Assembly: GCA_964606385.1 (NCBI GenBank)
Contig: CAZSFZ010000001.1
Coordinates: 136,304 to 200,303 of the forward strand
Direction: 5' to 3'
DNA from: an uncultured bacterium
Lineage (GTDB): Bacteria > Omnitrophota > Omnitrophia > Omnitrophales > Aquincolibacteriaceae
Length of the DNA stretch: 64,000 bases
Positions 6,601 through 57,831 of the stretch are shown here, piece by piece. Each line of letters begins with the position of its first letter. Positions within the stretch are counted from its first letter, which is position 1. Under the pieces are notes generated by a model, which saw only the letters and a list, made by a program, of their open reading frames with translations, made no database searches and was not told where the DNA came from. A program made the position numbers and the translations under genes.

Positions 6601-9600
6601 TGCGGTAATACCGCTTAATGTGATCGCCTTCGCTGTGATATCGGCTGTTGTAGCGTCGCTCGAAAAAGCCAGTTGATAATAACTTGCACTTGCACCTGAA
6701 AGCGAAATGCCCGTGACATTAATTGCCTTTCCGGTGCCAACGTTTTTATCCGCGAACGAAGCGGTGTAATTGATCGTATAAGCTTCATAATAACCCGTGA
6801 TATGATCATCCGTAAAAGTCGCTGTCGCAGTGGTTGTTCCGTTATAGATCTTGTTGACACCCATTGCATTGACCGTCAGCACCAGCTTCGCGTCATCCAG
6901 ATCGATCGTGAAACCCGTCCCGATCGATGTATTTGATCCCATCGTATAAAGGGTAGTCCCAGTACCCGCATTTCTGCCAAGCTGCAGGATTCCGTAAGTC
7001 TCATCGCCTGGAAGCGCTTGGTTGGCGTCAGACTGAATATTCAGCGTTCCATCCATCCAATCAGTATTAGCCGCATTTACATCTGTGCTCAAATAAGTAG
7101 CATTCGCACCTTGTAAGGTGATGACGCTTGAACCAGAAGTGAAGGCTCCGTCACTGACTTTGAATGCACCACTCACGGTCATGTCAGGAGCCTGAAATGT
7201 TCCTCCTTGCAGATCGAAATTCGCCATTGTCATGGAATCTGTCACACCCGAGAAACTTCCGGCCGTCTGCGTGTAATCCCCTGTCAAGGCGAATGTGCCA
7301 CCGGTAATAGCTCCGGAGTTGATGACCGTCCCGTTAAATGTCCCGGCTGCAATATGCAAACGATTTTCTACAGCGCCGGTAAAAGTACCCGCGGCAATGA
7401 TTCCTTTATTAATTATCGATCCTCCGACTTCGGTGTCATAATCCCAGGTCCCTCCCGTTTCGAGAGTCATGGATTGCAATCCTCCAAAATTCCCACCGTC
7501 GACAATTCCCCAATCGGTCAAATCGCCCGTAAATGTCCCGCCGAATATGGTTCCGGCATTTTCGACCACGCTATTAAAAGTTCCGTCAAACACCAATGCA
7601 GAATTCGTTACGCTTCCGTTAAAAATACCGCCGCTAAGATCGCCAGCGTCATTAGAAACCGAACTGTTGAACGTACCGCCGTAGATGGTTCCATATTCAT
7701 AATTAAAAACTGCACCATTAAATGTCCCGTCAAAAATCCAGGCTGTGGTTGAACCCACGCCGCCATTGGTTACACCACAATTAAAGGTGCCTCCTGAAAT
7801 TTCTCCAGTGAAAATATTATTAACTCCGCCTGTAAACGTACCGCCGTAAATCCCGCCCCCGGCATTAAAAGTATAATTGGTGACTGATCCGTTGAACGTT
7901 CCATCCGAAATCAAATAGTCGTTATACACGTCCCCATGAAACGTGCCGCCTGAGATCGTCCCCCAGCCATAATTATTAACGAGACCGTTGAATGTTCCGC
8001 CGGTGATCGTCCCATCACTGTAATCAGTACTATAAACACCGTTGAACGTCCCGCCGGAAACCGTGCCGAAGTTATCGACAGCGCTATTGGTGGTACCGGC
8101 ACCGGACCAAGTGCCGTTATTGATCACGGTAGAACCCGTGATCGTTCCGTCATTGGCCAAAGCCCCATTCACAGTCAGCGTGTCACCAAGTGTCAAAATA
8201 CCGCTCGAAAGAATATTGAGAGCCTGAAGCTCCACAGAAGAAGCCGTTAAAGGATCGTTAGCGCGATTAAAAACATAAACGGTTGAGTTTGAATCAGGAG
8301 CGGATCCGGTCGACCAATTCGAAGCTGTCGACCAATCCGTATCTGAATTACCGGACCAAATATAAGCCGCAGTCCCTGCCGCGGCATTCTGCCAATTTAA
8401 AGTCGGCAATGCGTCTGTGTAGGTGTCCCACACTGGAGTAAAAATATCCCAGCCAGCGTTGCCATAAATAACCGGATCCATCATTTGCGCCGTAGTAAGC
8501 CCGGTGACGCCGTCCTGGATACCGTCCGCCACGCCGAAGGCTGCGCCTGAAGTCTCTGTGTTCCAGAAGGAATTCGTGATCGTCCCGCCATAGCGTGTAC
8601 CCACAAGACCGCCTTCATAACCCGAACTGATCACCAACCCGGTCGCGTAACTGTTATTGATCTCAGCCACTCCATCATAAGCCGTCCCTAAAGTCCCGCT
8701 TAATCCTCCGACTTCATTATTGGCGCCGGTTACCGCACCCGTCGCATAACTGTCCTGGATGATACTCCGTCCGTAATAGGCTCCACTCCCGCCCTCTCCC
8801 ACAAGACCACCGACCATCCTGTTCCCGCTGACCGTAGCCGTCGAATAAGTAGCCGTCAAAGTACCGTAATTCTTTCCTATCAGACCACCCGCGGCAGACT
8901 CGCTTCCTTCGCTGCTTCCGGTCACAGTACCCGTGCTATAGGTATTAGAGACCACTGAAGACGTGTTATGTCCGGCCAAAGCGCCCACCGCGGAACTCCC
9001 GGTCACCGCCACATTCACAAGACCCAGATCTTGAATGGTGGAATTCGTGATCGCTCCAAAAAGCCCCACATAATTCTCGGCCGGACGGTTAATGGTAAGG
9101 CCTGTGATTGTTTTATTATTACCATCCAACGTTCCCGAAAAGAAATCAGTACCATAATCTTCACCTATGGGATTAAATCCCGCGCCGCCATTCCAGCCAG
9201 CAGTTCCGGAAGCGTCGATATCATTCGCAAGAGTGTAATTCGCATCAAGATCGAGGGCCATCATCTGGAGTTGGACCACATTCGTGATGACGTCTGTCCA
9301 TTCGTTCTGCAGGTGCGGAAGCCCCGCCATGGTCCAAATTCCAACCCTATCATCCTGGAAAATTCTAAAATCCCAGTTGGAAAACGTCGCCTGTTGCATC
9401 ATTTGGGCCGTGGTCTTGCCCTCTACGGCTCCTGCGCCCTCACCGGCACTGGTGGCTAGACCCGAAGTTTCCGTGTCCCAATAGTTGTTCGTTAGCGTTC
9501 CACCGCTATAGGACCCAATCAACCCTCCTACCGAACTATTCCCCGATACATTACCGGTGGAAAAAGTATTTGTCAGAGAAGAATCGCTGTTATATCCCAC

Positions 9601-12600
9601 GAGTCCGCCCACATAAGCATTACCGCTAACAGCTCCCGTCGCGTAAGAATTACCGATCGAAGACTGATAATTATCCCCCACAAGCCCCCCGGTGTTGTAG
9701 CCTGTTCCCGTCACGTTTCCTGTAGCATAGCTTAAGGTAATGCTGGAGGATCCTGCCTGTCCGACCAGACCACCCACTTGGTCGCTGCCGCTGACAGTCC
9801 CCGTGGCATAATTCAAGGAGAGGGTCGAATTGTAAGCATGCCCCACTAAACTTCCCACATTATCGGCCCCGATCACGCTGCCGCCCAATAACCCCACACG
9901 GCTAATATTCGATCCGCTTATGGCGCCAAACAACCCTACGGTATTTTCACTTCCCCGATTGATCGTCAATCCTGTGATCCCGTAGCCCGCACCGTTCAAA
10001 CTACCCGTAAAAGGATTCGTGGGAGGGTCGAACCAATTTCCTGTCGAATAACCTACCGGGTCAAAACCAAGATAGCTGGAACCATTCCAATTCCAGGTTG
10101 TCGTCGCGGAGGCGTCAATGTTGTTGGCGAGAGTGTAATTAGCATCCAGATCGAGAGCCATCATCTGGAGTTGGGCGGCATTGGTGATATTCTCGGACCA
10201 TTCCATCTGAAGATGGGGATTGCCGGCCATGATCCAGGTCCCGTTATGCCCAGCCGAAACACCATCCACATCAAAATCCCATCCTGTGAAATTCGACTGC
10301 TGCGTCATCTGCTGGATAGTCAGGCCTGTACCGTGGTTGTAAGCGCTCGTGGCCTGGCCCGTCGTTTCCACATTCCAGAAACTATTGGTGATCGTCATCT
10401 GATCAAAATCAATATACCCCACAAGGCCGCCGGCATGCGTCCCTCCCGAAACCTGACCCGTCGCATAAGAATTAATGAGTTTCCCAACGCAGGTATAACC
10501 CACGGCGCCCCCCGCCCGAGCCCAATTGTCCGAACCTGTATTCGTAACGCTCCCAGTGGCATAGGAATTTCTTATCTCCGGGAGCGGCTGCCCAACGGAT
10601 GCTCCGCTCAACGAACCGGCAATGCCACCTGTAGAACCACTCCCGGTAACATTGACAGCCGAATAAGAATTGTCAATAAAGGCAGACCCTAGCCAACCCA
10701 CAAGCCCACCCGCCACGCCGCCCGTAATGGTCCCAGTTGCATAAACATTCGTGATTGAAACTGAATCCCTCGCAGTTAGCGCAACCGATCCTCCCGTTCC
10801 TGTCACGTTTAATAGTCCAAGATTCCGCACAATAGTGCCACCACCACTAAGGACCGAAAACAACCCCTGAGTGGCCTTTAGATTACTGATTTCGTGATAG
10901 CCGCCATCTAGAACACCCGTGAATGTCCCCACCGATGAGAAACCGGCGCTTGAATTCCAATTAGATGTTTCACTAGCATCAATGTCGTTGGCAAGGGTAT
11001 AAGAAGCATCGAGATTTAGCGCCATCATTTGAAGCTGGGCGAGCGTTTTGATATCCGTGGACCATTCGATCTGAAGATGCGGCATGCCAGCCATGATCCA
11101 GTCGCCGGAACCCGCGGCAACGCCATCCACGGTAAAATCCCATCCTGAGAATGTGGCTGATTGCATCATTTCCGCCGTCGTTTTTCCAGTAACTCCGGCG
11201 GGTTCAGGATCCTGGTTCCCGACACCATCGGCCATGCCAGAGGTGGTCGTGTTCCAGAAATTGGAGGTATAGACGGGACCGTATTCATCATACCCAACGA
11301 GTCCGCCTTTGTTCGTATCCGCCGTCACGCTGCCGGTCGAATAAGCCTGGCTCAAGGAACCGCCCGCTAGAACGCCGATCAAACCGCCGACTTTATCTGT
11401 TCCTGTAACGCTCCCTATCGCGTAAACATCTGAAACATCTCCGCCATTTTGATTACCGACAAGCCCGCCTACTCGATCCGTTCCGGTGATATTTCCTGTC
11501 GCGAAGGAATTGGAGAAACCTCCCACATTGCTTCCCACAAGACCGCCCGCCATGATGCTTGATGCCGTTACATCTCCTGTCGCGTAGGAATGTGACAGCG
11601 TGCCCATGTGCCGGCCTCCGATCAAACCGCCGACGCCGATCGTTCCGGAAACATCTCCGGTAGCATAACTGGTGGTAACATCTTCCCAACTTTGACCGAT
11701 CAAGCCGCCCACAGAACCTCCGGTGCTATTCACGTTGGCATCCGAATGGGAATTCGAAAGGGTTGAATCCGCGGCGCCCGAACCAAAACGCCCGATCAAG
11801 CCGCCGACGCTCCCCGTCCCGAACACACTACCGGTTGAATACACGTTGGTAAGGACGCCGGTAAGCACTTCTCCCACCAAAGCGCCCACGTATGAAGTCC
11901 CGCTGATGTTGGCACCGGTGAGTCCCACATTTTGCAACGTCCCGCCCTGTCCTTCAAAACCTCCAGTCCCCCAAACACCAAAAAGACCCGTATAATCCCC
12001 GCGGTTCATGAAAAGCCCGTTGATCGTATGGTTATTACCCTCAAAGGATCCGGTAAAAGGATGGCTCGTGTCATAACCCACTGGGCTGAAACCCGCGCCG
12101 GCGTTCCAACCGCTTGTCCCTGAAGCGTCGATGTCGCCTGCAAGGGTGTAGGCAGCGTCCAGATCAAGGGCCATCATTTGAAGTTGAGATGCATTTGAAA
12201 TCGTTGGCGTCCATTCGTGCTGGAGATGAGGATAACCGGCCATAACCCAGGCCCCGGAACCCGCGCCCGTACCGTCTATATTGAAATCCCAACCTGTAAA
12301 AGTGGCTTGTGTCATCATTTCAGTCGTCGTTTTAGGAACACCTTTTCCTGTATCAGACTGACCGGAAGTTTCTGAATCATAGAAAGACTGTGTCAGCACA
12401 ACAGCATCTGCTACTCGACCAATCAATCCCCCCATGTTCCCGGTTCCTCCGCTGACGAGACCCTTAGAGAAGCTATGAGTGATATTAGCCGTTCCTGCTT
12501 GTTGCAACCCGACTAATCCTCCAATGTCGCTACCCCCAGTGACGCTTCCACTGGCATAGGTATTGGTCAAAGAAGCATCAAAAAGCAGCCATCCCACAAG

Positions 12601-15600
12601 GCCGCCAGCCCGCAATCCACCGCTCACATCCCCCGTTGCATAAGAATTATTAATCGATATACCCTGGTCAACAGCCACCAAACCTCCTCCAATTCTTCCG
12701 GCTGAAACATCACCCGTAGCGTAGCTGTTTTGGAGTACGGTTGTGGAATAAAGATTGCTGATGAGTCCACCGGCATCTCCATTCGAAGTCACGTTCCCAG
12801 TGGCATAAGAGTTTGTAATCGATCCGCCAGAACTTGTTCCTATAAGTCCTCCGACACTATCACCTCCAGAGACGCTAACATTGGCATAAGCACGATCCAC
12901 GAGCCCCGAGCTATTACCTACCAGAGCCCCGGTTGAAGATAAACCTCCACCTCCGGCGCTCACCATACCAGTTACACTACCGCTTGTAAGACCGACATTC
13001 CTGATCTGACCGGATGATGTCCCAAATAATCCAACATCGGTCGCTGATGGTCGATAGATATAAAGGCCCGATATTGTATGGTCGTTTCCCTCAAATGTTC
13101 CGGAGAAACCCGCTATAGGACTAAACCCTCCATAGGTGGTACCGGATACCCAGTTCCAGGTCGCGGTTCCCGAAGCGTCAATGTTGTTGGCAAGCGTGTA
13201 AGAAGCGCCAAGGTCCACGGCTATGAGCTGGAGGTCAACGGCGTTGGTGAGGGTCGTGGTGTGCTCCTGCTGAAGGCGGGGCCTGTCCGCCATGATCCAG
13301 TTCCCGATCGTGCCGTCGCCCACCACACTGAAATCCCATCCGGTAAAGGTCGCGGCCGAAGACATCTCCTGGGTGGTCTTGGGCGTTCCCTTGCCGGTGT
13401 CGCTTTTGCCGCTGGTCTGGGAATTGTAAAAAGAATTCGTGATGGTACCCCCCGTGAGACCGCCCACAAGGCCGCCGACATTCGTGTTCGTATCGTAAAC
13501 ATGTCCTGTTGAATAAGAATTCGTGATGGAACCGGCCGTATTTTCGCCCACAAGACCGCCGATATAATCCCCAGTAACGGGCCATCCCATGTCTCCCATA
13601 ACCTCCCCGGTGTTATAGGAATTCAAAATAGTCCCGGAATTACTCCCCACCAGACCACCAGTGCGGCCCTTGTTGGCATAAGCACCGTAACTGGAAGCAT
13701 TGTAGGAATTCTCTATCGCCCCTGAGTTATCACCGACCAAGCCTCCGGCTCCCACCTGACCGAGCACATTTTCTGCCCAAACCCAGCTTGAACCGGTCAT
13801 GGAGGATTTTTGAATGGTGCCTGAATTCACACCCACAAGGCCGCCCACTTTTTGGGTCCCAAGGATCTCACTATCCGCTGTCCCGGTTGCCAGCTTAACG
13901 CGGTTCATGGTTCCGCCCTCTTGAGTCCCAACGAAAGCGCCCACATTCGAACCGCCGGTCACACCCGCTGAGGAGAGCACAACATCCTGAATCGAGGCGT
14001 TATTGGTGTACCCGAAAAGGCCGACATTGTCCTCTCCGCCGCGGCTGATTTTTAAATTAGAAATAGTTTTTGAATTACCATCGAAATTCCCGGCGAATTT
14101 TGTAGTCGCATCGCCGATCGGATCAAATCCCGCCCCGGCATTCCAACCCGAGGTGCTTGTCGCGGCAATATCATTGGCCAACTCGAAGTAAGTCCCCGCC
14201 GCCAGATATCCCCCCATGGCCTGGAGGCCATAGACATCGGAGATCATGTACGGATCCCCGGAAGCGCCAGTGCCCGTAAAGCGACTCAGCTTAGCGTCGC
14301 TATTGATCCGAAAGTCCGTGATCGAGGACCAGGCGGAAGTCGCGAGAGCGGCCGTGTAGACCGGCGTCACGCTTCTCGTTCCGGCCAGGGTCAGGATTTT
14401 CACCCCGGTCACGTCTCCAATCGTAGAATCTTTGGAGGCTTTGAGCGTCAGATCGTGATTATTGCCGGCCACGGCATAATCCCCGCTCCAGAAAATTCCC
14501 CCGAGATCATTGATGCCGTCGGAATCCGCCCAAATGGTTGTATCGCCGCTCAAGCTAAAATTTCCAAGCACATTAATGTCATCCACATCTTCGTAGCTCC
14601 CGGAAATGATCGCCCCTTCTTCGATGTCCGCGGCGTGGTCAAGGTTCTCCATCACGGCACGTCCAACTTCCATCCGGCCTCCAACTTTGAATGTCGCTCC
14701 CTGTTCAGTAAGCGTTTGAGCTTTTAAAACGCCTTGCGTCTTAATGGCGCCGGCAGCGGTCAGATCCATCTCCCCGCCGGTCGCATCCATCGTTCCTTCG
14801 TTCACAATCTCGACCTTCTTGGAAGTCACTTCAATCTTGCCGTTCAGAGCCTCCAGGAGCATTTTGTTATAGGCGGCCTGCTCGGCGGTCAGTTTGATGT
14901 TGCCGCCTTGCGCCTTCATCGCGCCAAGGTTCGTGACGCGCCCCTCCTGGGAAGTGACACGGATCTCGCCTTTCGGAGCCTCGATAGCTCCCGCGTTCGT
15001 GACATCCTGACGGGCCGTGAGCGCAGCCGCTCCTTCTGTCGCGCGGATCGTGCCCTCATTCACCACTTCGCCTTCCGTCGACTCGACTTCCACTTTCCCG
15101 TGGAGAGCCTCCATCAGCATTTTGTTGTAGGCGGACTGCTTGGAGGTGAGATGAAGCACACCTTCGTCCGCTTTCATCGTCCCCTTGTTCGTGATGGCGC
15201 CTTCCGTCGAAACCACGCGAACCTCACCGCCTAAAGAGCTCATGATGGCTTCATTCACGATATCCCGTTTCGCGGTCACCTCCACCTTGCCCTTGTCCGC
15301 CATCATCGTTCCCTGATTGGTCACGTTGCCCGAGACCGACTCAACCTTGATCGAACCTTCCTGGGCTTTTATCAGAGCCTCATTCATGATGTCGTCCAGG
15401 ACACGCGCTTCGATCTTTCCCTGCTCGGCATCGATCATCCCCGTGTTCGTGAGACCTCCCTGCGCCGCCTCGATCTTGACCTCCCCGCCGCGCGCCTGCA
15501 CCAGGGCCTCGTTATAGATATCATCCAGGGACTGGAACTCGATCACACCGTTATCCGCCATGACAGCGCTGACGGCATTCCCATGCTTCTCAAGGCTGAT

Positions 15601-16452
15601 GGCTTTCTCAAAAAGCCCGTCCATGGCTTGAGCGTTCAAAATCACCTTGCCACCGTCAGCCGAGATCGTCCCCGTGTTCTTGATCTGGGATTCAAGACCC
15701 AGTTTATTGGCCGTCGCTTCATCAACCCCGATCGAAACGAGCCCGTCCCCGGAAATACCCACCGTTACCGTATTGCCCGCAGCGAGAGCGACCGTGCCCA
15801 TTGGCACTTCGATCGTCCCCTTGTTCTCAATGGCATTAGCGATGAGCGCTACCAGGTCCGCATTGTTGCCCACGATCTTGCCGTCATTGGTGAGAAAGCC
15901 GCCTCCCCCTGAAAAGGAATACTGCCGTGCGAAAAAGTCCGTCGCGCTGGTGTTAAGAGCCAGGGTGGAAGCAAGGAGTGAGGCATTGTTCAGGTTGATC
16001 ATGGCGCTTGAGCCGATATTAATCCCGGCGATATTCTGGAGGATAAAGGCAAGGTTTGAGAGGTTCATCGTGCCGAAAATGTTCGAGGCCTGGCCGCCGT
16101 TCACGAGAAGCGCCAAGCTCGCGTTCTGGCTGAGGCCTGAGATGTTATAAATATTATTCTGCGGCACGTTGAACTCGGGGACGTTCCACACGGGGTTCCC
16201 CGTGACGTTCCAGTTCGTGGTGTTCTCCTGCGTGTTGACTTCTACACTGCCGCCTTCCAGGTTGATCGTCTCGGCCATCACCGGACTCACGCACATCGAC
16301 CACGCAAACACAAAAGCTGTAAACGCCGCCGTCGCTTTCCGCCAACCCATCCGACCCCGGAGGTCGGATTGGGGCAACTCTGTGGCTAGGCCGGTGGCAC
16401 CAGATTGACTTGGCACAGCCCTGTTCTGGGTTGTATATATTTTCTTTTTCAT
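661..16452 (-). CDS. giant TpsA/filamentous-haemagglutinin-like exoprotein (about 5263 aa): TPS domain, FHA beta-helix, GLUG-motif modules, PATR-like beta-helix, about 19 MBG-like repeats, Pro-rich stalk, C-terminal FecR-like domain
   Basis: This is one uninterrupted ORF.
- Start: the preferred start is ATG 16450-16452 (MKKKIY...) rather than the ORF-track start 16494.
- N-terminus: there is an ESPR-like N-terminus followed by a hydrophobic signal segment (AAFTAFVFAWSMCVSPVMA).
- TPS domain: residues about 60-330 align to the haemagglutination-activity/TPS domain (WNVPEFNV...SLALLVNGGQASNIFGTMNLSN.AFILQN.AGINIG...LLASTLALN..DFFA versus the FhaB INWQSFNI...ALNRVTGG.PS.ILG.L.ANGQVFLVNPNGILFG...LVASTLDI).
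- Repeat families: there are many GGLVG/GGLIG GLUG motifs, a GGTFNG 10-12-aa periodic beta-helix, and KVYDQTT...TLSGITASNK 83-aa repeats.
- Pro-rich stalk: PPTVVDPPPIVIPPQPPVITPPP.
- C-terminus: the last about 100 aa (ILPGDEVKTADRNSVEVLMDDGKTGRVEIKEGSLFRIQ...SRFEVRTPTALTGVRGTTFEVTV) match the FecR-domain pattern. Confidence 0.85.
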   Translation of the reverse strand: MKKKIYTTQNRAVPSQSGATGLATELPQSDLRGRMGWRKATAAFTAFVFAWSMCVSPVMAETINLEGGSVEVNTQENTTNWNVTGNPVWNVPEFNVPQNNIYNISGLSQNASLALLVNGGQASNIFGTMNLSNLAFILQNIAGINIGSSAMINLNNASLLASTLALNTSATDFFARQYSFSGGGGFLTNDGKIVGNNADLVALIANAIENKGTIEVPMGTVALAAGNTVTVGISGDGLVSIGVDEATANKLGLESQIKNTGTISADGGKVILNAQAMDGLFEKAISLEKHGNAVSAVMADNGVIEFQSLDDIYNEALVQARGGEVKIEAAQGGLTNTGMIDAEQGKIEARVLDDIMNEALIKAQEGSIKVESVSGNVTNQGTMMADKGKVEVTAKRDIVNEAIMSSLGGEVRVVSTEGAITNKGTMKADEGVLHLTSKQSAYNKMLMEALHGKVEVESTEGEVVNEGTIRATEGAAALTARQDVTNAGAIEAPKGEIRVTSQEGRVTNLGAMKAQGGNIKLTAEQAAYNKMLLEALNGKIEVTSKKVEIVNEGTMDATGGEMDLTAAGAIKTQGVLKAQTLTEQGATFKVGGRMEVGRAVMENLDHAADIEEGAIISGSYEDVDDINVLGNFSLSGDTTIWADSDGINDLGGIFWSGDYAVAGNNHDLTLKASKDSTIGDVTGVKILTLAGTRSVTPVYTAALATSAWSSITDFRINSDAKLSRFTGTGASGDPYMISDVYGLQAMGGYLAAGTYFELANDIAATSTSGWNAGAGFDPIGDATTKFAGNFDGNSKTISNLKISRGGEDNVGLFGYTNNASIQDVVLSSAGVTGGSNVGAFVGTQEGGTMNRVKLATGTADSEILGTQKVGGLVGVNSGTIQKSSMTGSSWVWAENVLGQVGAGGLVGDNSGAIENSYNASSYGAYANKGRTGGLVGSNSGTILNSYNTGEVMGDMGWPVTGDYIGGLVGENTAGSITNSYSTGHVYDTNTNVGGLVGGLTGGTITNSFYNSQTSGKSDTGKGTPKTTQEMSSAATFTGWDFSVVGDGTIGNWIMADRPRLQQEHTTTLTNAVDLQLIAVDLGASYTLANNIDASGTATWNWVSGTTYGGFSPIAGFSGTFEGNDHTISGLYIYRPSATDVGLFGTSSGQIRNVGLTSGSVTGMVSAGGGGLSSTGALVGNSSGLVDRAYANVSVSGGDSVGGLIGTSSGGSITNSYATGNVTSNGDAGGLISNLYSTTVLQNSYATGDVSAGRIGGGLVAVDQGISINNSYATGDVSGGLRAGGLVGWLLFDASLTNTYASGSVTGGSDIGGLVGLQQAGTANITHSFSKGLVSGGTGNMGGLIGRVADAVVLTQSFYDSETSGQSDTGKGVPKTTTEMMTQATFTGWDFNIDGTGAGSGAWVMAGYPHLQHEWTPTISNASQLQMMALDLDAAYTLAGDIDASGTSGWNAGAGFSPVGYDTSHPFTGSFEGNNHTINGLFMNRGDYTGLFGVWGTGGFEGQGGTLQNVGLTGANISGTSYVGALVGEVLTGVLTNVYSTGSVFGTGSVGGLIGRFGSGAADSTLSNSHSDANVNSTGGSVGGLIGQSWEDVTTSYATGDVSGTIGVGGLIGGRHMGTLSHSYATGDVTASSIMAGGLVGSNVGGFSNSFATGNITGTDRVGGLVGNQNGGDVSDVYAIGSVTGTDKVGGLIGVLAGGSLSQAYSTGSVTADTNKGGLVGYDEYGPVYTSNFWNTTTSGMADGVGNQDPEPAGVTGKTTAEMMQSATFSGWDFTVDGVAAGSGDWIMAGMPHLQIEWSTDIKTLAQLQMMALNLDASYTLANDIDASETSNWNSSAGFSSVGTFTGVLDGGYHEISNLKATQGLFSVLSGGGTIVRNLGLLNVTGTGGSVALTARDSVSITNVYATGTITGGVAGGLVGWLGSAFIDNSYSAVNVTGSGSTGGIAGSLSGASVGQPLPEIRNSYATGSVTNTGSDNWARAGGAVGYTCVGKLINSYATGQVSGGTHAGGLVGYIDFDQMTITNSFWNVETTGQATSAYNHGTGLTIQQMTQQSNFTGWDFDVDGVSAGHNGTWIMAGNPHLQMEWSENITNAAQLQMMALDLDANYTLANNIDASATTTWNWNGSSYLGFDPVGYSTGNWFDPPTNPFTGSLNGAGYGITGLTINRGSENTVGLFGAISGSNISRVGLLGGSVIGADNVGSLVGHAYNSTLSLNYATGTVSGSDQVGGLVGQAGSSSITLSYATGNVTGTGYNTGGLVGDNYQSSIGNSYATGAVSGNAYVGGLVGYNSDSSLTNTFSTGNVSGNSSVGGLIGSYSGGTLTNNYWDTETSGLATSAGEGAGAVEGKTTAQMMQQATFSNWDFRIFQDDRVGIWTMAGLPHLQNEWTDVITNVVQLQMMALDLDANYTLANDIDASGTAGWNGGAGFNPIGEDYGTDFFSGTLDGNNKTITGLTINRPAENYVGLFGAITNSTIQDLGLVNVAVTGSSAVGALAGHNTSSVVSNTYSTGTVTGSSEGSESAAGGLIGKNYGTLTATYSTATVSGNRMVGGLVGEGGSGAYYGRSIIQDSYATGAVTGANNEVGGLSGTLGTAYDGVAEINNSYATGLVISSGYEGGLVGTRYGGTITNSFWNTETSGAAFGVADGIQDGVTGLTTAQMMDPVIYGNAGWDIFTPVWDTYTDALPTLNWQNAAAGTAAYIWSGNSDTDWSTASNWSTGSAPDSNSTVYVFNRANDPLTASSVELQALNILSSGILTLGDTLTVNGALANDGTITGSTVINNGTWSGAGTTNSAVDNFGTVSGGTFNGVYSTDYSDGTITGGTFNGLVNNYGWGTISGGTFHGDVYNDYLISDGTFNGSVTNYTFNAGGGIYGGTFTGGVNNIFTGEISGGTFNCGVTNGGVGSTTAWIFDGTFNGAVFNYEYGTIYGGTFNSSVSNDAGDLSGGIFNGSVTNSALVFDGTFNSVVENAGTIFGGTFTGDLTDWGIVDGGNFGGLQSMTLETGGTWDYDTEVGGSIINKGIIAAGTFTGAVENRLHIAAGTFNGTVINSGAITGGTFALTGDYTQTAGSFSGVTDSMTMANFDLQGGTFQAPDMTVSGAFKVSDGAFTSGSSVITLQGANATYLSTDVNAANTDWMDGTLNIQSDANQALPGDETYGILQLGRNAGTGTTLYTMGSNTSIGTGFTIDLDDAKLVLTVNAMGVNKIYNGTTTATATFTDDHITGYYEAYTINYTASFADKNVGTGKAINVTGISLSGASASYYQLAFSSDATTADITAKAITLSGITASNKVYDQTTAVTVSTTGADFAGMIDGDELTVSSTGVFSDKNVAAGKTVTLTNTLGGADLANYSITDQGTTTADITAKAVTLSGITASNKIYDATTDATVSTVGATFTGMIGGDELTVSSTGVFSDKNVASGKTVTLTNTLGGADLANYTITDQGTTTANITAKAVTLSGITASNKVYDQTTDATVSTAGAVFTGMVDGDDLTVSSTGTFSDKNVAVGKTVTLTNTFDGADLGNYTITDQGTTTADITKAAVTLSGITASNKVYDQTTDATVSTAGAVFSGMYAGDELTVLSTGAFSDKNAADGKTVTLTNTFGGADLANYEITDQGSILANITKAVATLSGITASNKVYDSTTAATVNDTGAIFGGLYSGDELTVSSTGVFSDKNAGDGKTVNLSNILGGVDLGNYTVIDQTTTTADITKAAVTLSGITASNKVYDQTTAATVSTSGALFAGKYDGDVLTVSSTGTFSDKNVANGKTVTLANTFGGTDLGNYNITDQGTTTADITKATVTLSGITASNKVYDQTIAATVSTAGADFAGKYVGDVLTVSSTGTFSDKNVGTGKTVTLANSFGGADLGNYNITDQGTTTADITKATVTLSGITASNKVYDQTTAATVSTVGAAFAGKYAGDVLTVSSTGTFGDKNVANGKTVTLVNTFGGTDLGNYNIADQGTTTANITQKAVTLGGITASSKVYDTTTDVNVSSAGANFSGLIAGDELTVSSAGVFSDKNAGIAKQVDLTNVLGGADLNNYMVIDQQTTTADITKATVTLSGITASNKIYDSTTAATVSTSGAAFAGKYAGDELTVSSAGTFSDKNVGVGKTVTLANTISGADAGNYTVVDQGTTVADITKASVTLSGITASDKFYDGTTDAAISTAGAIFEGKYAGDTLTVSSTGVFDDKNVGTEKIVTLTNILGGSDLENYQIADQATTTADIQARGVAIDLTGSRVYDGTVNLAAEIFTLSNLVGGETLTLTGVGTMADKHVADGKTVTLGTLALGDGMNGGLASNYTLTGGTHTVDIIAAPIMISAENISKTYDGGLAAPTTARVYSGQLFDTDTILGGTFAFTDKNVGYANKTITVSDVTVSDGNGGGNYAITYVDNTTSTINPYVVDLSGSRVYDGTLEVAAGVFSLSALVGTETLTLTGIGRMDDKNVGIHKAVTTGTLALGDGMNGGLAGNYTLEGGTHTVNIGKATAALSGVAALNKVYDATTAAAVSTAGAAFAGKYGNDVLTVSSTGTFSDKNVAAGKTVTLVNTFGGSDLGNYNITDQATTTADITKATVTLSGITASNKVYDQTTVATTNTAGAAFAGKYAGDVLTVSSTGTFGDKNVGTGKTITLVNTFGGADLGNYNITDQGTTTADITKASVTLSGITASNKVYDQTTAATVSTAGAAFAGKYDGDVLTVSSTGVFSDKNVANGKTVTLTNTFGGTDLGNYQITDQGMTTASITARPLTITATGIHKVYDGTTAAAATLSDNRLTGDVLAPSYTTATYADSLVGTSKPVTVSGISLSGVDSYNYAYNAVATTLADITPVPVVIVTPPTVVDPPPIVIPPQPPVITPPPVVIVEPPAITNPPINITPPTPPTPPVTPPTTPVTPPTQPVTPPAQPSVPAAGSTPSSGTVSSQPATTPAAGNTASSGTTGTSAASQENSSSSSTANSSSSSAGRQGDNDSGQASEGEDSREQGAIAKDEAAAENDGVAPSKEEAANIQWRDVPIDVMMKNQDNRKFLTDVRVLEGAVYVIDAVNTMSLLGMGDSMRVLYKKRVSKAIKAPKKVDIQERQKSREEIAEAKDLVVETIPQEAPKEPATPEMKEALTQILEKVKEEPEVEPAPANRVLKSASPVIMHQTKTGERYGTLKNPGRDVFVRSNGGDWKAAADGMIILPGDEVKTADRNSVEVLMDDGKTGRVEIKEGSLFRIQKAETDSVTGAKTTLLDLAMGKILVKVESLKGNSRFEVRTPTALTGVRGTTFEVTVKEKA
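2040..6870 (-). repeat. intragenic tandem array of about 19 units of about 249 bp (83-aa MBG-like repeats) with high nucleotide identity
   Basis: Near-identical DNA blocks recur every about 249 nt (for example ...gtcgtagtcccctgatcggtaatgttgtaattgccgagatcg...). At protein level the repeating unit is ITKA(A/T)VTLSGITASNKVYDQTT..GDxLTVSSTG.FSDKNV..GKTVTL.NT.GG.DLGNY.ITDQGTTTAD. Confidence 0.8.
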
Positions 16453-16633
16453 TTTTTTGCCTCTAATAGAAGAGTACTCTACAAAACAATACAAAACAAT
16501 AGCACCTTAATACTTTTTTATATTATTTTTCTATTTATAGCTATATATAGCGTTTTTCATAGTATTTTATAGTATGTTTAAACACAAAGATGATCATATT
16601 TTGAGCATCATAAAAAATAAGGATTTTTGACGC
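16453..16633 (-). promoter_or_regulatory. AT-rich island carrying the promoter/regulatory region of the giant gene
   Basis: This is about 180 bp of roughly 25% GC in an otherwise roughly 58% GC window, between the GH57 stop (TAG 16634-16636) and the giant-gene start. It contains a tandem 10-mer acaaaacaat x2 (16481-16500), the palindrome ctatatatag (16541-16550) and the palindrome atgatcat. No confident -35/-10 pair could be assigned. Confidence 0.5.
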
Positions 16634-31134: not shown

Positions 31135-31557
31135 TTAAGCATTGGATGGAGCATGGGACTTGATCTCGCGTCCCAGAGCTTCGCTCACGGCATCAAGAAG
31201 CTTCTGGCCGCCATAGACCTTTTGGCTGTCCGGATCTATGGAAACCGAGGTGGTTTCCCGGTCCACGCGTTTCACCAAAAAAGTGACCGTGCGAAGGTCT
31301 GAATCATCCAAGCGGCTGTAATTTGTATCCCGGACGGTAATAAGCCCCCGCTCCTTGTCGGTCTCTTCCAACTCCCAGGTCCCCACGGAGTCCAGCGCGT
31401 CCAGCGTCCGGAGGTAGGTGAGATCATACGGAAGTTTATAGACCAAGACCTGATCATTCGGGGGAAGGACCTCGCCGACGGTATTGCACCCGACAAGACC
31501 CAAAGATAAAATGAGAACGGAAAGGACCGCGAGCATATTTTTCATAAAAACCCCCAT
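31135..31557 (-). CDS. small lipoprotein (about 140 aa), translationally coupled to the upstream 1565-aa gene
   Basis: The signal peptide has a lipobox (LSLGLVGCN). Its ATG (31555-31557) overlaps the TAA stop of the upstream gene by 1 nt (TAATG). Confidence 0.55.
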   Translation of the reverse strand: MGVFMKNMLAVLSVLILSLGLVGCNTVGEVLPPNDQVLVYKLPYDLTYLRTLDALDSVGTWELEETDKERGLITVRDTNYSRLDDSDLRTVTFLVKRVDRETTSVSIDPDSQKVYGGQKLLDAVSEALGREIKSHAPSNA

Positions 31558-46205: not shown

Positions 46206-46286
46206 TTAGCGTATAGGGTTTAGGGTATAGGGCATAGGATATAGTTTCGCTTTTCTAAACCCCATCCCCTACCCACTATCCTCTAA
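46206..46286. repeat. telomere-like palindromic intercistronic repeat element, copy A (argG stop to argH Shine-Dalgarno)
   Basis: The sequence is ttagcgtatagggtttagggtatagggcatagg...ttttctaaaccccatcccctacccactatcctctaa. It is about 85% identical to copy B at 49603-49676, has the inverted-repeat core gggtttag/ctaaaccc, and has G3/C3 tracts. Confidence 0.7.
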
Positions 46287-49602: not shown

Positions 49603-49676
49603 TTAGCGTATAGGGTTTAGGGGATAGGGTATAAAAGGCTTTTCCTAAACCCTATACCCTACCCTCTATCCCCTAA
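49603..49676. repeat. telomere-like palindromic intercistronic repeat element, copy B (argB stop to argD start)
   Basis: The sequence is ttagcgtatagggtttaggggatagggtata-aaaggctttt-cctaaaccctataccctaccctctatcccctaa. There is a 13-bp perfect stem tatagggtttagg/cctaaaccctata. The minus (mRNA-sense) strand reads GGGGATAGAGGGTAGGGTATAGGG, a canonical four-tract G-quadruplex motif. Confidence 0.7.
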
Positions 49677-53049: not shown

Positions 53050-53094
53050 TGTCCCTGATCTTTTTTTCTTAACGGGTGACAAGGATTGCCCCCA

Positions 53095-53128
53095 TTTCAA
53101 CTCCGTTGAAATTGATAAGAATTGGAAC
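53095..53128 (+). promoter_or_regulatory. conserved 5'-leader element, copy 1 (rnc leader)
   Basis: The sequence is tttcaactccgttgaaattgataagaattggaac: the palindrome TTTCAAC-N4-GTTGAAA followed by TTGATnnGAATTGG. It ends 13 nt before the rnc ATG. A second copy, about 31/35 identical, sits in the same position relative to the AsmA-like gene start (56417-56449). Confidence 0.6.
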
Positions 53129-53140
53129 TATGGTAGGTGT

Positions 53141-53911: not shown

Positions 53912-56395
53912 TCACTCGGTTACAAGTTCGTAAATAAATTCCTTCGCCTTGCCCCGGCGGATCTTATCGGTCAATTCTTCCGTCTGGATCGGCTCGGGCT
54001 TCATGTCGGGCGCCGTCAACGATCCAGAAAAAAGCATCGAGATGGGTCCCATGTGGGCCTGGGGATCTTTTTTGAAAGCGGACACCATGTCCGGTAAAAG
54101 CTTCATCGCGACATCGCTCGACAGGAACATATCCAGGCGGAAATTCGCGAGACCGTCAAATCCGAGCGTCCCTTCGCCGTCCATAACGTAATCGGCACTC
54201 TTTACCAGCAGATTGTCGGTCGTTGCTTTTCCGCCGCCGATCTTCCATTCGAAATTCATCGTATCGAATTCCCTGAAACTGGGACGGATCGCTCCGAGAT
54301 CGCTGAAGTGTTCCAGCGTGGCGATAGCGTCTTTGGGATCAAACGTCACGAACCTGCCGCTTTTAAGGGTCCATTCCCCCTGTCCTTCCAGCGATTTGCT
54401 CCAAGCCTCGGCGCCCCACCCTTTACCCGCCAACGAACCCTTGAGGTCAAGCGCACCCTCGAGGACTTTTTTGAGAACATCCTGGCGGCCCAAAAAGAGC
54501 CCGAGATCCAGCCCCTGAAGCTCGGCATCAAAGCCGTATTCGGCCTCGGGGCCGTTCAAATTAAGAGCGCCCACGAACTTGGCCTTCCCCTGATAGGCTT
54601 CAAACTGAAGGGACGCGGCATTCCAGACACCTTCCGCATACACAAGGTCCGCGGCCAGATTCTTGATGGATTGATCCTCCGGGAAAACATTCTGGATAAA
54701 TCCTTTCGCCTGATCATAGGCCGGGGTCCCGTCGCTGGTGTCCTTGCGTTTCAAAAACGCCTCGGCGGCCTTCCAGGCCTCCAGAGGCTTCATTTCGGCC
54801 GCCGAAGCCTTGATACCCACTTGCGGTTTTTCGGGAAAACCCGAGATCTTCAGATCGGCCGTCATCGGCGCGCCGCCGATCTCAAATTGCATTTGCCGGC
54901 CTTCCATCATGAGCGGGCTGTAATCGAGCGACAGCGTTACGTTCCGGAATCCGATCCCCTCGGGATTTGTGCAGGAAGCTTTTTCAAAGGAAAGATTGAA
55001 AATGTGTTCGGCCTTTTCCAGTTTACGGAGGTCCCCTTTCCAGTTCGCCATCAGTTTGGCATCACCTTCCAGCTTGTACCCCTGCAGCACGGGGATGTAC
55101 TGCTCCCATCCGGTCATGGAGAATTTGTTCGTGATCAAATTGAGCTGCCCCGCCCCGGTCTTGAGATCGAGGTCCTTAAGGTTTCCTTTCACGCTCAATT
55201 CCTTGAACTTCACGGCAAAATCACCTCCGAGCAAAGATCCGCGCTGGAGGAGAAGATCAAAATTCAGATCCAGGGGAATGTCTTTAGGTTTGGTGAAATA
55301 CTGCCCGTAGGAAAGCAGCACCTTGGCCAGATCCCAACCGAAATGAAGCGAGAGATGGTCCAGGGTCCCCTCCATGGAGAGCACCCATTTTCCGGGGCCG
55401 GAAAAACCCATTTGGAACGGCAACGCATTCTCGAGCCCCGGCCAGTACTTCAGGATATCCTCGAGCGCCATGTCGGAGCCGGCCACATGAAGACTGCCGA
55501 TCTCCCCGGTATTCAGCTTCATATTCCCGTTCATCTCGACCGCGCCGAACGGGAACTTCACAAGGACTTTGTGGACCTTCAGTTCCGCGGTATCGTTATT
55601 CCAGGCCGCTGCCGCGTTCCATTCGGCATCAAGGGACGGCGCTTCGACCCAGCCGTTCTCCTGCGGCACTTCATAGACCAGCCCCTTCCCGGACCCCGAA
55701 GCGGTCAGCTCGAGAAATGCCTCCAAAGGTTTTTTCTTGATCTCGACCAGGGTATCAATCAGGCCTTTCTTGAAAAAGAGAGCGCGTTTCGGATCCGGGA
55801 CAAGCCCCTTGGCCGCTTGATCAAGCGATAATCCTTTAAGTTCGACGACGACCGATCCGCTCGCCTTCTCCCAGTTCCATTCTTCCACGGAATCCAACAC
55901 CACGTTCCCCTTCATGACAAGGGCTTTGGGTTTCCCCGCCATATCGGTCACAAAATGGAACGGGATGGGGATCTTGGGGGTCACGGCGCCGACCTGGAGC
56001 GAAAAATTCTCGAAAACCACCGGACTCATGAAATCCAGGCCGGGGATGGAGGTTTCGGCTTTACCGTTTTGCACGTAAAAAGCTGCGGGCTCCACGCGCC
56101 CGATCAGAAGCGGCAGGATGTTGAAATCGAACTGGATCTTTTCGGCCTCCACCACCAGCGGTTGGCTGGAAAAGGTCAGCTGCGGTTTTTCAAAAACGAT
56201 CTTGGGCTGGGGAAAATAACCGACACGGACATTCTGATATTTCAGGGTGCCTTCGGTGAGCGCCTGGACCTTCTGGATCAGGAATTCATGAAGTTTGGGA
56301 GCGGGAAGGAGCCGGCGGGACTGGAACCAAAGACCGGCGACGAAAAGGATCAGGAGAAGAACGGCCGACAGCAACAACGCCTGGCTTTTTTTCAT
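53912..56395 (-). CDS. AsmA-family / DUF748-like envelope biogenesis protein (about 828 aa)
   Basis: It has a single N-terminal TM anchor (MKKSQALLLSAVLLLILFVAGLWF) and a long periplasmic beta-rich body of typical AsmA-like size. The start is taken at ATG 56393-56395. Confidence 0.45.
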   Translation of the reverse strand: MKKSQALLLSAVLLLILFVAGLWFQSRRLLPAPKLHEFLIQKVQALTEGTLKYQNVRVGYFPQPKIVFEKPQLTFSSQPLVVEAEKIQFDFNILPLLIGRVEPAAFYVQNGKAETSIPGLDFMSPVVFENFSLQVGAVTPKIPIPFHFVTDMAGKPKALVMKGNVVLDSVEEWNWEKASGSVVVELKGLSLDQAAKGLVPDPKRALFFKKGLIDTLVEIKKKPLEAFLELTASGSGKGLVYEVPQENGWVEAPSLDAEWNAAAAWNNDTAELKVHKVLVKFPFGAVEMNGNMKLNTGEIGSLHVAGSDMALEDILKYWPGLENALPFQMGFSGPGKWVLSMEGTLDHLSLHFGWDLAKVLLSYGQYFTKPKDIPLDLNFDLLLQRGSLLGGDFAVKFKELSVKGNLKDLDLKTGAGQLNLITNKFSMTGWEQYIPVLQGYKLEGDAKLMANWKGDLRKLEKAEHIFNLSFEKASCTNPEGIGFRNVTLSLDYSPLMMEGRQMQFEIGGAPMTADLKISGFPEKPQVGIKASAAEMKPLEAWKAAEAFLKRKDTSDGTPAYDQAKGFIQNVFPEDQSIKNLAADLVYAEGVWNAASLQFEAYQGKAKFVGALNLNGPEAEYGFDAELQGLDLGLFLGRQDVLKKVLEGALDLKGSLAGKGWGAEAWSKSLEGQGEWTLKSGRFVTFDPKDAIATLEHFSDLGAIRPSFREFDTMNFEWKIGGGKATTDNLLVKSADYVMDGEGTLGFDGLANFRLDMFLSSDVAMKLLPDMVSAFKKDPQAHMGPISMLFSGSLTAPDMKPEPIQTEELTDKIRRGKAKEFIYELVTE

Positions 56396-56416
56396 GGTTC
56401 CCCGTCTCTTGCTGGT

Positions 56417-56449
56417 CCCAATTCCAATCAATTTCAACAGAATTGAAAC
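56417..56449 (-). promoter_or_regulatory. conserved 5'-leader element, copy 2 (leader of the AsmA-like gene)
   Basis: The minus-strand reading is gtttcaattctgttgaaattgattggaattggg, ending 22 nt before the start codon. Confidence 0.6.
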
Positions 56450-56470
56450 TGACAGCGATGGGGACCGCGG

Positions 56471-56596
56471 TCACTGGTTCGAACTTAAAGGCACCGCACT
56501 CACCGGGCTGTAATTGTAATCGTCCAGGAATCCCTGGCAACCGGTCAGGGCAAAAACAAGCGCGAGAAAAACAAGGCCCCGAACCAAAAGCTTCAT
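56471..56596 (-). CDS. unannotated small lipoprotein ORF (41 aa), translationally coupled to rpsI (TAATG overlap)
   Basis: The translation is MKLLVRGLVFLALVFALTGCQGFLDDYNYSPVSAVPLSSNQ*. It has a positive n-region, a hydrophobic core, the lipobox L-T-G-C, and a 21-aa mature lipopeptide. Its ATG at 56594-56596 shares one nucleotide with the rpsI TAA. It falls below the ORF-track size cutoff. Confidence 0.5.
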   Translation of the reverse strand: MKLLVRGLVFLALVFALTGCQGFLDDYNYSPVSAVPLSSNQ

Positions 56597-56994
56597 TAAC
56601 GCTTCGTGAACTGGAAGCTTCTGCGAGCGCCTTTGCGACCCGGTTTCTTTCTTTCTTTTTCCCTGGGATCACGGGTCATGAAACCGCCCTTGCGCATCGT
56701 GCCGCGCATCTCGGGGTTGAGACCGACCAGCGCCCGGGCGATGCCGAGCTGGATGGCCCCGGCCTGTCCCGCCACCCCGCCGCCTTCCACGCGGGCGCGG
56801 ACACGCACTTGCCCGAGGAGGTTCGCGGATTTGAGAGGCTGTTCGACAAGCATCTGGAGATTGGCGCGTTTCAAATATTTTGCGGAGTCCTGCCCGTTCA
56901 CGGTAAAACCTTTTTGCCCCGGGAAAACCCATACGCGGGCAATGGCGGTTTTACGGCGTCCTGTGGCGTACATAAGTGTCGCGGAAGCGGTCAT
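56596..56994 (-). CDS. rpsI: 30S ribosomal protein S9
   Basis: At 132 aa, it ends in the Arg/Lys-rich tail ...RRSFQFTKR typical of S9. Confidence 0.9.
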   Translation of the reverse strand: MTASATLMYATGRRKTAIARVWVFPGQKGFTVNGQDSAKYLKRANLQMLVEQPLKSANLLGQVRVRARVEGGGVAGQAGAIQLGIARALVGLNPEMRGTMRKGGFMTRDPREKERKKPGRKGARRSFQFTKR

Positions 56995-57428: not shown

Positions 57429-57831
57429 AATCTTCTTTTCTGTTTAATTGGATCAGGATAGTCGGAAAGGCGAGAAACCTTCTTGCGACTCGAAAATACC
57501 TCGAAAAGTTCGGGGAGTATAGCAAAAACCCCCTGGGGTGTCAAACTTTTACCTTTTTTATTTACCCCGTCCCCGGTGCCCCTAGAGACAAAAAAACACC
57601 GCGAGTCAAAAACCCGCGGTGGGATTGCCGTCCCAACTTTGTATTTCTTTTCCACTAGGGTAGTTGGGACGGCCCCAATCTCCGCGATACTTCGATTGAT
57701 CGGTATTGGGACCGTCCCTTGTGAAGCACTCCCTAAAGAGAGATAACTTAAAATCTTAAAAACCGGAATCTGCCGAAACCATAACACATAGTTTCGATTT
57801 AGCAAGACTCCTTGAACCTAAATTTTAGTCC
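57429..57831 (-). promoter_or_regulatory. long (about 400 nt) structured leader/promoter region of the rplM-rpsI operon with mutually exclusive hairpins
   Basis: Hairpin a is caccgcg (57597-603) paired with cgcggtg (57615-621). Hairpin b is gccgtcccaact (57627-638) paired with agttgggacggc (57662-673), a perfect 12 bp stem. Hairpin c is gggacggccccaat (57666-679) paired with attgggaccgtccc (57705-718). Hairpins b and c share the segment 57666-57673. No coding potential is credible here (the ORF-track 126-aa ORF is rejected). Confidence 0.5.

Follow-up and report, generated by a model that had tools for sequence, protein, structure and literature searches.

Within a 64-kb stretch of DNA from an uncultured bacterium of the Omnitrophota (contig CAZSFZ010000001.1 of assembly GCA_964606385.1), hereafter called the window, with all window coordinates counted from its first letter, we describe a 41-codon gene situated between rpsI, which encodes ribosomal protein S9, and a gene for a large AsmA-like protein. 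The novelty lies in a lipoprotein family that has so far gone undescribed, has a narrow distribution, and is locked in place between these two neighbors. Our leading interpretation, which we hold tentatively, is that this is a real lipoprotein gene of a family that, among taxonomically labeled records, is confined to a clade of Candidatus Omnitrophota, and that its product may serve as a docking partner of the adjacent AsmA-like bridge.

The open reading frame (ORF) occupies 56471..56596 on the minus strand, runs from ATG to TGA over 41 codons plus the stop, and encodes MKLLVRGLVFLALVFALTGCQGFLDDYNYSPVSAVPLSSNQ; reading the sequence and its ORFs gave the same place and length (41 amino acids, aa) as an initial annotation made from the window alone. 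Its ATG (56596..56594, minus strand) overlaps the TAA stop codon of rpsI by one base, as had been noted there: base 56596 doubles as the final A of the stop and the A of the start, giving TAATG. Three parts can be distinguished in the product, all on the minus strand. A putative signal peptide covers residues 1–19 (MKLLVRGLVFLALVFALTG, 56540..56596), with K2 and R6 in the n-region, the hydrophobic stretch LVFLALVFA, and a lipobox L-T-G before Cys20. It is followed by a conserved mature core at residues 20–32 (CQGFLDDYNYSPV, 56501..56539), delimited by per-position counts over 53 distinct loci, and by a variable tail of polar composition at residues 33–41 (SAVPLSSNQ, 56474..56500). In the monomer model from AlphaFold2 (AF2), a helix spans residues 2–25, and the chain beyond it is predicted to be disordered, with a predicted local distance difference test score (pLDDT) of 55–71 and no secondary structure. 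The mature peptide would comprise 22 residues including the Cys and 21 beyond it, so the initial count of 21 is right when made after the Cys and one short when the Cys is included.

That the small ORF is a real protein-coding gene is close to certain. Orthologous rpsI loci were taken from one genome per species, and the ten closest all came from metagenome-assembled genomes (MAGs) of Candidatus Omnitrophota. Across these ten, S9 identity drops from 96% to 63%, and each contig reaching past rpsI carries the same small frame. In an ungapped codon alignment of nine orthologs, pairwise differences within the mature core numbered 83, 62, and 228 at codon positions 1, 2, and 3, respectively, and over the 53 distinct loci the mean column entropies at these positions were 0.64, 0.51, and 1.53. 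The frame is intact in 53 out of 53 distinct loci, all of which keep the lipobox and the motif C-x-x-F-[LMF]-[DE]-D-Y-x-[YC]-x-P. Cys+1, Phe+4, Asp+7, Tyr+8, and Pro+12 are invariant, Tyr+10 is nearly so, and the codons of the invariant residues show zero entropy at positions 1 and 2 and make use of every synonymous codon. Because third-position variation dominates and the invariant residues use all of their synonymous codons, selection must act on the protein, and this codon-position pattern rules out explanations that invoke a DNA or RNA element. The initial annotation had named loss of the frame downstream of orthologous rpsI genes as evidence against the gene; the outcome was the opposite. 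Conservation of the frame, of the lipobox Cys, and of a motif of 12 mature residues, accompanied by a clear signature of synonymous substitution, extends down to 63% identity in S9 and 28% in the AsmA-like protein. As a control, rpsI loci of other phyla were examined: none of 65 had a small lipobox ORF beginning at most 60 nucleotides (nt) from the S9 stop, and none of 70 had an AsmA-like gene.

The same data bear on the opposite view, in which the ORF is not a gene and what has been conserved is an element of the DNA or RNA, for example an internal promoter driving the AsmA-like gene, a terminator, an attenuator, or a structured RNA. A promoter-like sequence, TTGCCA-16-TACAAT (10 of 12 consensus matches), does lie within the ORF at 56540..56513, and a qualifying match occurs at the same position in 19 of the 53 distinct loci, but it fails in the other 34. 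No Rfam family matched at E ≤ 1, no terminator-like site was found between rpsI and the AsmA-like gene, and the variation at third positions together with the full use of synonymous codons at invariant residues runs counter to such an element. We rejected the internal promoter as the explanation, since the match is kept in so few loci and the codon pattern points to a protein, and we find the non-coding view as a whole barely credible.

The product is very probably a lipoprotein, with lipidation and cleavage predicted from its sequence. We applied a rule of the PROSITE PS51257 type, which calls for a positive n-region, an uncharged hydrophobic h-region, a lipobox [LVI..][ASTG..][GAS]-C, and the Cys at position 15–35. 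The window peptide obeys it, with cleavage placed at LTG|C before Cys20, in agreement with the signal peptide and LTGC lipobox proposed initially, and so do 89 of 98 family members; the Cys is invariant. Pfam added a weak, sub-threshold match to the lipid-attachment-site model LPAM_1 on residues 8–21. The residue at +2 is Gln or Ala in 91 of 97 members and Asp in none of the 97. If the sorting rules of Escherichia coli hold in Omnitrophota, which they may not, a lipoprotein that has Gln or Ala rather than Asp at +2 is directed to the outer membrane. The 19-residue signal peptide would thus be exported, Cys20 would be lipidated, and signal peptidase II would cut before Cys20 to release a 22-residue lipopeptide that, by the E. 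coli +2 rule, may be sent to the outer membrane. Elsewhere in the window, another ORF, at 31135-31545 on the minus strand, begins with a canonical lipoprotein signal peptide (MKNMLAVLSVLILSLGLVGC..., 136 aa, no Pfam match); it is the sole other lipobox ORF of at least 100 aa within the 64 kb and gives only an indirect hint of lipidation machinery.

To delimit the family, a profile built from nine peptides was searched against a collection of 5.8 billion proteins clustered at 90% identity. This search returned 59 clusters, mostly of 37–70 aa, with one of 97 aa due to an N-terminal extension; all are unnamed or labeled 'hypothetical protein', none contains a Pfam domain, and the two that carry NCBI names both come from Candidatus Omnitrophota. 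An exhaustive hidden Markov model (HMM) search of 1.84 billion cluster representatives gave 45 matches at E ≤ 1e-3, all of 36–70 aa except one false positive. The exception, P0074 (1744 aa), is a repeat protein with 'LSATCAGVLADY' in each repeat. Overall, the family comprises ~100 protein clusters outside any Pfam or NCBIfam family, and every taxonomically labeled member belongs to Candidatus Omnitrophota. Its consensus consists of a signal peptide ending in L-[TSA]-[GAS]-C, then [QA]-[GA]-F-[LMF]-[DE]-D-Y-x-[YC]-x-P-[VLI]-G, then a tail rich in Ser, Asn, and Gly. Mature peptides have a median length of 22 aa, and Tyr is the C-terminal residue in 28 of 98 members. We found nothing relevant in the literature on the motif or on Omnitrophota lipoproteins.

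The gene had initially been described as unannotated, which applies to the window peptide itself and to some contigs but not to the family. The exact peptide is absent from the records as a called gene, and in two loci reached through the AsmA-like protein (L133 and L134) nothing is called in the gap between rpsI and the AsmA-like gene although the ORF is present (MRLFWVLLLLFSVTGCAAFFEDYQYQPISTSQTSG, and a GTG-initiated ...LAGCGGFFEDYQYQPLSNYPTS); on the other hand, a peptide 98% identical to that of the window, P0010, is recorded as 'hypothetical protein', and ~100 relatives are on record as well. Given these records and the uncalled copies, the family is best called undescribed and inconsistently annotated rather than wholly unannotated. 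One name was set aside: the 41-aa P0012 bears the Joint Genome Institute (JGI) label 'protein involved in sex pheromone biosynthesis', for which we found no family match and which looks like an annotation artifact set off by the lipoprotein signal peptide. Genes of ~40 codons at the ends of ribosomal operons are thus called inconsistently in MAG annotation, being either missed or given spurious N-terminal extensions.

Such extensions were seen where a palindromic repeat of ~55 nt, resembling repetitive extragenic palindromic (REP) sequences or miniature inverted-repeat transposable elements (MITEs), has in some relatives become inserted in front of the small gene, on its rpsI side. Gene calls there run through the repeat and give lipoproteins of 58–97 aa (for example P0011, P0014–P0016, and P0026). 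Within the window, the repeat, GGTCCCAAT.CCAATCAATTTCA...TGAAATTG..GGGACC, recurs in several spacers between genes, in one orientation or the other (56411-56468, 57665-57716, and ~53085-53130), and copies were also located in related loci (L001, ~4400-4560; L004 and L099, between rpsI and the small gene).

We then considered where the gene lies. Upstream of it, on the same strand, are rpsI (56596..56994, minus strand, 132 aa, PF00380, E = 1e-42), with a Shine-Dalgarno sequence GAGGT 9 nt before its ATG, and rplM for ribosomal protein L13 (57000..57428, minus strand, 142 aa, PF00572, E = 6.9e-41), the first gene of the unit. Even in the most divergent members, the order is fixed as asd-truA-rplM-rpsI-small gene-AsmA-like-(rnc, convergent)-argC-argJ-argB, as it is in the window. 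A peptide-motif search of 241 million metagenome records, which made no use of rpsI, yielded 44 loci, and seven more came from protein look-ups, for a total of 51. In all 51, S9 ends 48–144 nt before the Cys codon, and in 44 an AsmA-like match follows downstream, the remaining seven contigs stopping 2–835 nt past the small gene. Orthologs of the AsmA-like protein sharing just 28–30% identity still have the small gene between rpsI and their own gene, and every context examined contains a single small lipoprotein gene per locus. The linkage to rpsI and an AsmA-like gene, initially remarked on as unusual, is real and specific to the clade, present with S9 in 51 of 51 loci and in none of the 65 control loci. 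The gene also survives repeat insertions on either of its sides, on the rpsI side in L001, L004, and L099 and on the AsmA side in the window. Because the trio of rpsI, small gene, and AsmA-like gene is never split in the ~60 loci examined, synteny cannot separate linkage to rpsI from linkage to the AsmA-like gene, nor can it separate the functional readings discussed below.

The start of the small gene overlaps the S9 stop (as TAATG, TGATG, or NTGA) in ~29 of the 53 distinct loci, and in nearly every other locus it lies at most 30 nt away. A GGAG, GAGG, or AGGA motif at −18 to −4 was found in 0 of 51 small genes and in 26 of 43 rpsI genes. The translational coupling to rpsI that had been proposed therefore finds support at the sequence level in the stop/start overlap and the missing Shine-Dalgarno sequence. 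A sigma-70-like promoter candidate, TTGACA-17-TATACT, with 11 of 12 matches and a TG extension, lies at 57516..57544 (minus strand), ~90 nt of leader ahead of rplM; it is a consensus match, which is not proof of function, and is the probable start of a transcript covering rplM, rpsI, the small gene, and perhaps the AsmA-like gene. A terminator-like hairpin with a T-run lies upstream of it (57590-57621, minus strand), and since this hairpin is followed by a near-consensus promoter, the ribosomal unit seems insulated from truA upstream. The 75 nt that separate the small gene from the AsmA-like gene contain a stable hairpin without a T-tail (56411..56468, minus strand; minimum free energy of −29.8 kcal/mol for the folded 96-nt stretch, z = −2.5). 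This hairpin is one copy of the dispersed palindromic repeat and might attenuate or stabilize the transcript. From the promoter, the start geometry, the lack of a Shine-Dalgarno sequence, and the hairpin, we infer a single transcript, coupling to S9 by termination and reinitiation, and possibly lower expression of the AsmA-like gene. Ribosomes that finish S9 would re-initiate on the small gene, and the lipoprotein would be made in step with ribosomal proteins.

The proposed partner is encoded by the AsmA-like gene at 53912..56395 on the minus strand (827 aa from the ATG at 56395), which matches PF05170 with E = 6.1e-11 and 42.3 bits against a cutoff of 29.8. The mechanical list of ORFs stretches this gene to a TTG at 56437 (841 aa), through the hairpin repeat, and its orthologs point to the ATG at 56395 (MKKSQ...) as the true start. 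An AF2 model built with 35 orthologs has a mean pLDDT of 89 and shows a transmembrane helix at residues 4–29 and then an almost entirely beta structure of ~50 strands with a few short helices. Its Pfam score exceeds the curated cutoff, its N-terminus is a membrane anchor, and the remainder is long and rich in beta structure; the protein qualifies as an AsmA-like protein with a repeating beta-groove. NCBIfam gave partial matches to AsmA, to GspN (at the N-terminus), and to YhdP, and orthologs are named 'AsmA-like C-terminal region-containing protein' at NCBI. The downstream proteins at the other loci measure 813–890 aa, except that of L108 (968 aa), and each has an N-terminal hydrophobic anchor. 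Fold searches of the PDB returned weak or generic matches only (ApoB100, LptD, barrels, and curved beta-sheets) and allowed no sub-classification.

A role as partner of this protein, argued from gene linkage and precedent, seems to us possible, though short of probable. It is favored because a disordered 22-mer with an invariant core at its lipid anchor lies beside an AsmA-like gene and because YnbE and LptM offer precedents. The AsmA-like gene is the only non-ribosomal gene that is always beside the small gene, and its product is of YdbH-like size. A predicted disordered 22-mer whose 13 invariant-core residues begin at the lipid anchor would most simply be read as a membrane-tethered motif that docks to a protein surface situated at the membrane. 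The lipopeptide may thus form a membrane-anchored docking piece on the membrane-proximal end of an AsmA-like intermembrane lipid-transfer protein, tethering or completing the bridge as YnbE does for YdbH, with an unrelated sequence. In E. coli, which has the gene order ydbH-ynbE-ydbL, YdbH (879 aa) reportedly lacks the length to cross the periplasm by itself and needs YnbE, a small outer-membrane lipoprotein that is disordered by itself and folds onto the YdbH C-terminus (PMC11126948). Both systems would pair a tiny lipoprotein with an adjoining, probably co-transcribed gene for an inner-membrane-anchored AsmA-like protein of ~830–880 aa; both lipoproteins are predicted to be disordered alone, and neither has Asp at +2. 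In LptM, a motif directly after the lipidated Cys carries the function within an envelope machine and the tail is poorly conserved (PMC10567701), an arrangement also seen here, where a lipidated Cys would be followed at once by a short conserved motif and a short, poorly conserved, disordered tail. LptM (YifL) acts by inserting into a large envelope machine, the LptDE translocon, and a similar action of the present peptide is proposed by analogy.

Several observations weigh against this partnership. The adjacency of the trio in ~60 loci would fit an AsmA partner, expression from the ribosomal operon, or neither. The peptide has no homology to YnbE (hhalign probability of 2%, with the signal peptides alone aligned, and no Pfam YnbE-family match), and its neighbor has no detectable homology to YdbH (BLASTP E = 1.4). 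The gene order is reversed, the small gene being upstream of the AsmA-like gene where ynbE lies downstream of ydbH, and no gene for a YdbL-like chaperone (DUF1318) was found in the conserved block. The mature part measures 22 aa, compared with ~45 aa in YnbE, and its conserved segment abuts the anchor and holds Pro, aromatic, and acidic residues, whereas YnbE has an alternating hydrophobic beta-strand pattern ~13 residues from its Cys. Finally, lipidation, cleavage, localization, transcription, and translation are all predicted. Membership in the YnbE family was rejected on the sequence comparisons and the operon layout.

The other known small lipoproteins fared no better as relatives. Beyond the sub-threshold lipid-attachment-site match, the window peptide had no Pfam match at E ≤ 1, and in 42 members no match to the YnbE, Entericidin, or LptM families was found at E ≤ 0.1; NCBIfam matches were essentially confined to the signal-peptide region and below cutoffs. 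LptM was rejected, as PF13627 is absent and NF047847 aligned with residues 1–20 only (E = 0.074, 13.1 bits against a cutoff of 27.7); the genomic context also differs, with no LptD or LptE gene nearby. The entericidins EcnA and EcnB, a tandem toxin/antidote pair, have precursors of 41–48 aa and mature lipopeptides of ~22 aa. The initial description of the peptide as entericidin-like therefore applies to its size and lipoprotein nature and not to its family, since the Pfam Entericidin model matched none of the 42 members, no tandem pair is present, and motif and context are different. Lpp was rejected as well: Lys accounts for 0.4% of mature residues and is C-terminal in no member, the median mature length is 22 aa, and there is no coiled coil. 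At best, the peptide would function like a small-lipoprotein adaptor without being a homolog of one.

The docking role has to be weighed against three other readings of a genuine gene. The product could be an independent small envelope lipoprotein expressed along with the ribosomal operon, for instance an abundant outer-membrane lipopeptide with a structural or stress-related role that has to be made in proportion to growth, and the AsmA-like gene would then simply be the next envelope gene in a frozen block. This would agree with the fact that the tightest physical link of the gene is to rpsI, through the start/stop overlap and the lack of a Shine-Dalgarno sequence, and with a variable spacer toward the AsmA-like gene (~20–300 nt from the small-gene stop to the first AsmA match in most loci, with the hairpin repeat in the window). 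Moreover, conservation covers the entire block asd-truA-rplM-rpsI-x-asmA-rnc-argCJB, which makes adjacency by itself a weak argument for a shared function. However, an invariant 13-residue motif flush with the anchor of a disordered peptide resembles docking to a specific protein more than bulk structure; the scarcity of Lys, with none at any C-terminus, excludes a peptidoglycan link of the Lpp type, and a coiled coil would require a longer peptide. In L001, L004, and L099, furthermore, the repeat splits the gene from rpsI, yet the gene stays before the AsmA-like gene. We judge an independent lipoprotein to be rather unlikely.

The lipopeptide might instead be cargo, its acyl chains held in the hydrophobic groove of the AsmA-like protein on the way from the inner to the outer membrane or the cell surface, with the motif after the lipobox acting as a sorting signal. 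GspN, an AsmA-like beta-taco protein, is needed for the surface localization of lipoproteins that carry a motif right after the lipobox Cys (PMC12802150). The conserved motif here likewise begins at +2, and the N-terminal 190 residues of the neighbor match the GspN model TIGR04411 (E = 6.4e-8, 32.4 bits), although below its curated cutoff of 50. The cargoes that depend on GspN/PulN are large enzymes or adhesins exported by type II secretion and bearing GGG or ND(N/D) motifs, which are unlike F-L-[DE]-D-Y, whereas the present peptide has 22 aa and no type II secretion genes were seen in the conserved block. An 827-aa transporter for one 22-residue peptide without a domain also seems uneconomical, and a cargo role strikes us as quite improbable. 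We give still less credence to a regulatory upstream ORF or leader peptide, whose translation itself would set the expression of the AsmA-like gene or the stability of the rplM-rpsI mRNA. The ORF is indeed short and translationally coupled, it separates a highly expressed operon from a gene whose expression probably has to be much lower, and in the window a hairpin follows it. But a leader would have no need of an invariant lipobox Cys, a full signal peptide, and a 12-residue motif conserved as amino acids in 53 loci; the spacing to the AsmA start varies between loci, and the hairpin belongs to a mobile repeat that is absent or elsewhere in relatives. This makes a leader very improbable.

Two further features of the window were observed at a distance from this locus. 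A giant ORF at 661-16494 on the minus strand (5277 aa) includes a 258-nt (86-aa) unit, present in at least 14 tandem copies at 2254-6675, and further repeated modules at ~8500-13700; it probably encodes a giant protein of the surface or adhesin-like kind reported for Omnitrophota. A short G-rich repeat, TTAGCGTATAGGGTTTAGGG[G/T]ATAGGG, occurs at 46206-46250 and at 49603-49633, ~3.4 kb apart, in copies that are 94% identical.

Returning to the docking role, its most specific form, in which the 22-residue lipopeptide is the outer-membrane docking subunit of a minimal AsmA-like bridge and the coupling to S9 ties the supply of anchor to growth rate, is doubtful as a whole. The way in which AsmA-like proteins such as YhdP, TamB, YdbH, and their relatives connect with the outer membrane is under active study, and to our knowledge their only known partners are TamA/TamL and YnbE. 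A second, unrelated, and much smaller lipoprotein, invariably encoded beside an AsmA-like gene in a deep-branching, uncultivated phylum, would suggest that small lipid-anchored adaptors recur as a solution and would supply a readily testable 13-residue motif. The family's narrow taxonomic range and the absence of cultured, genetically tractable hosts restrict the practical reach. If the proposal is true, this peptide would be the smallest partner known for this class of transporters and would have evolved independently of YnbE and TamA. In these hosts, which are ultra-small bacteria, the supply of the anchor, and hence the delivery of lipids to the outer membrane, would then be hard-wired to ribosome synthesis and growth rate.

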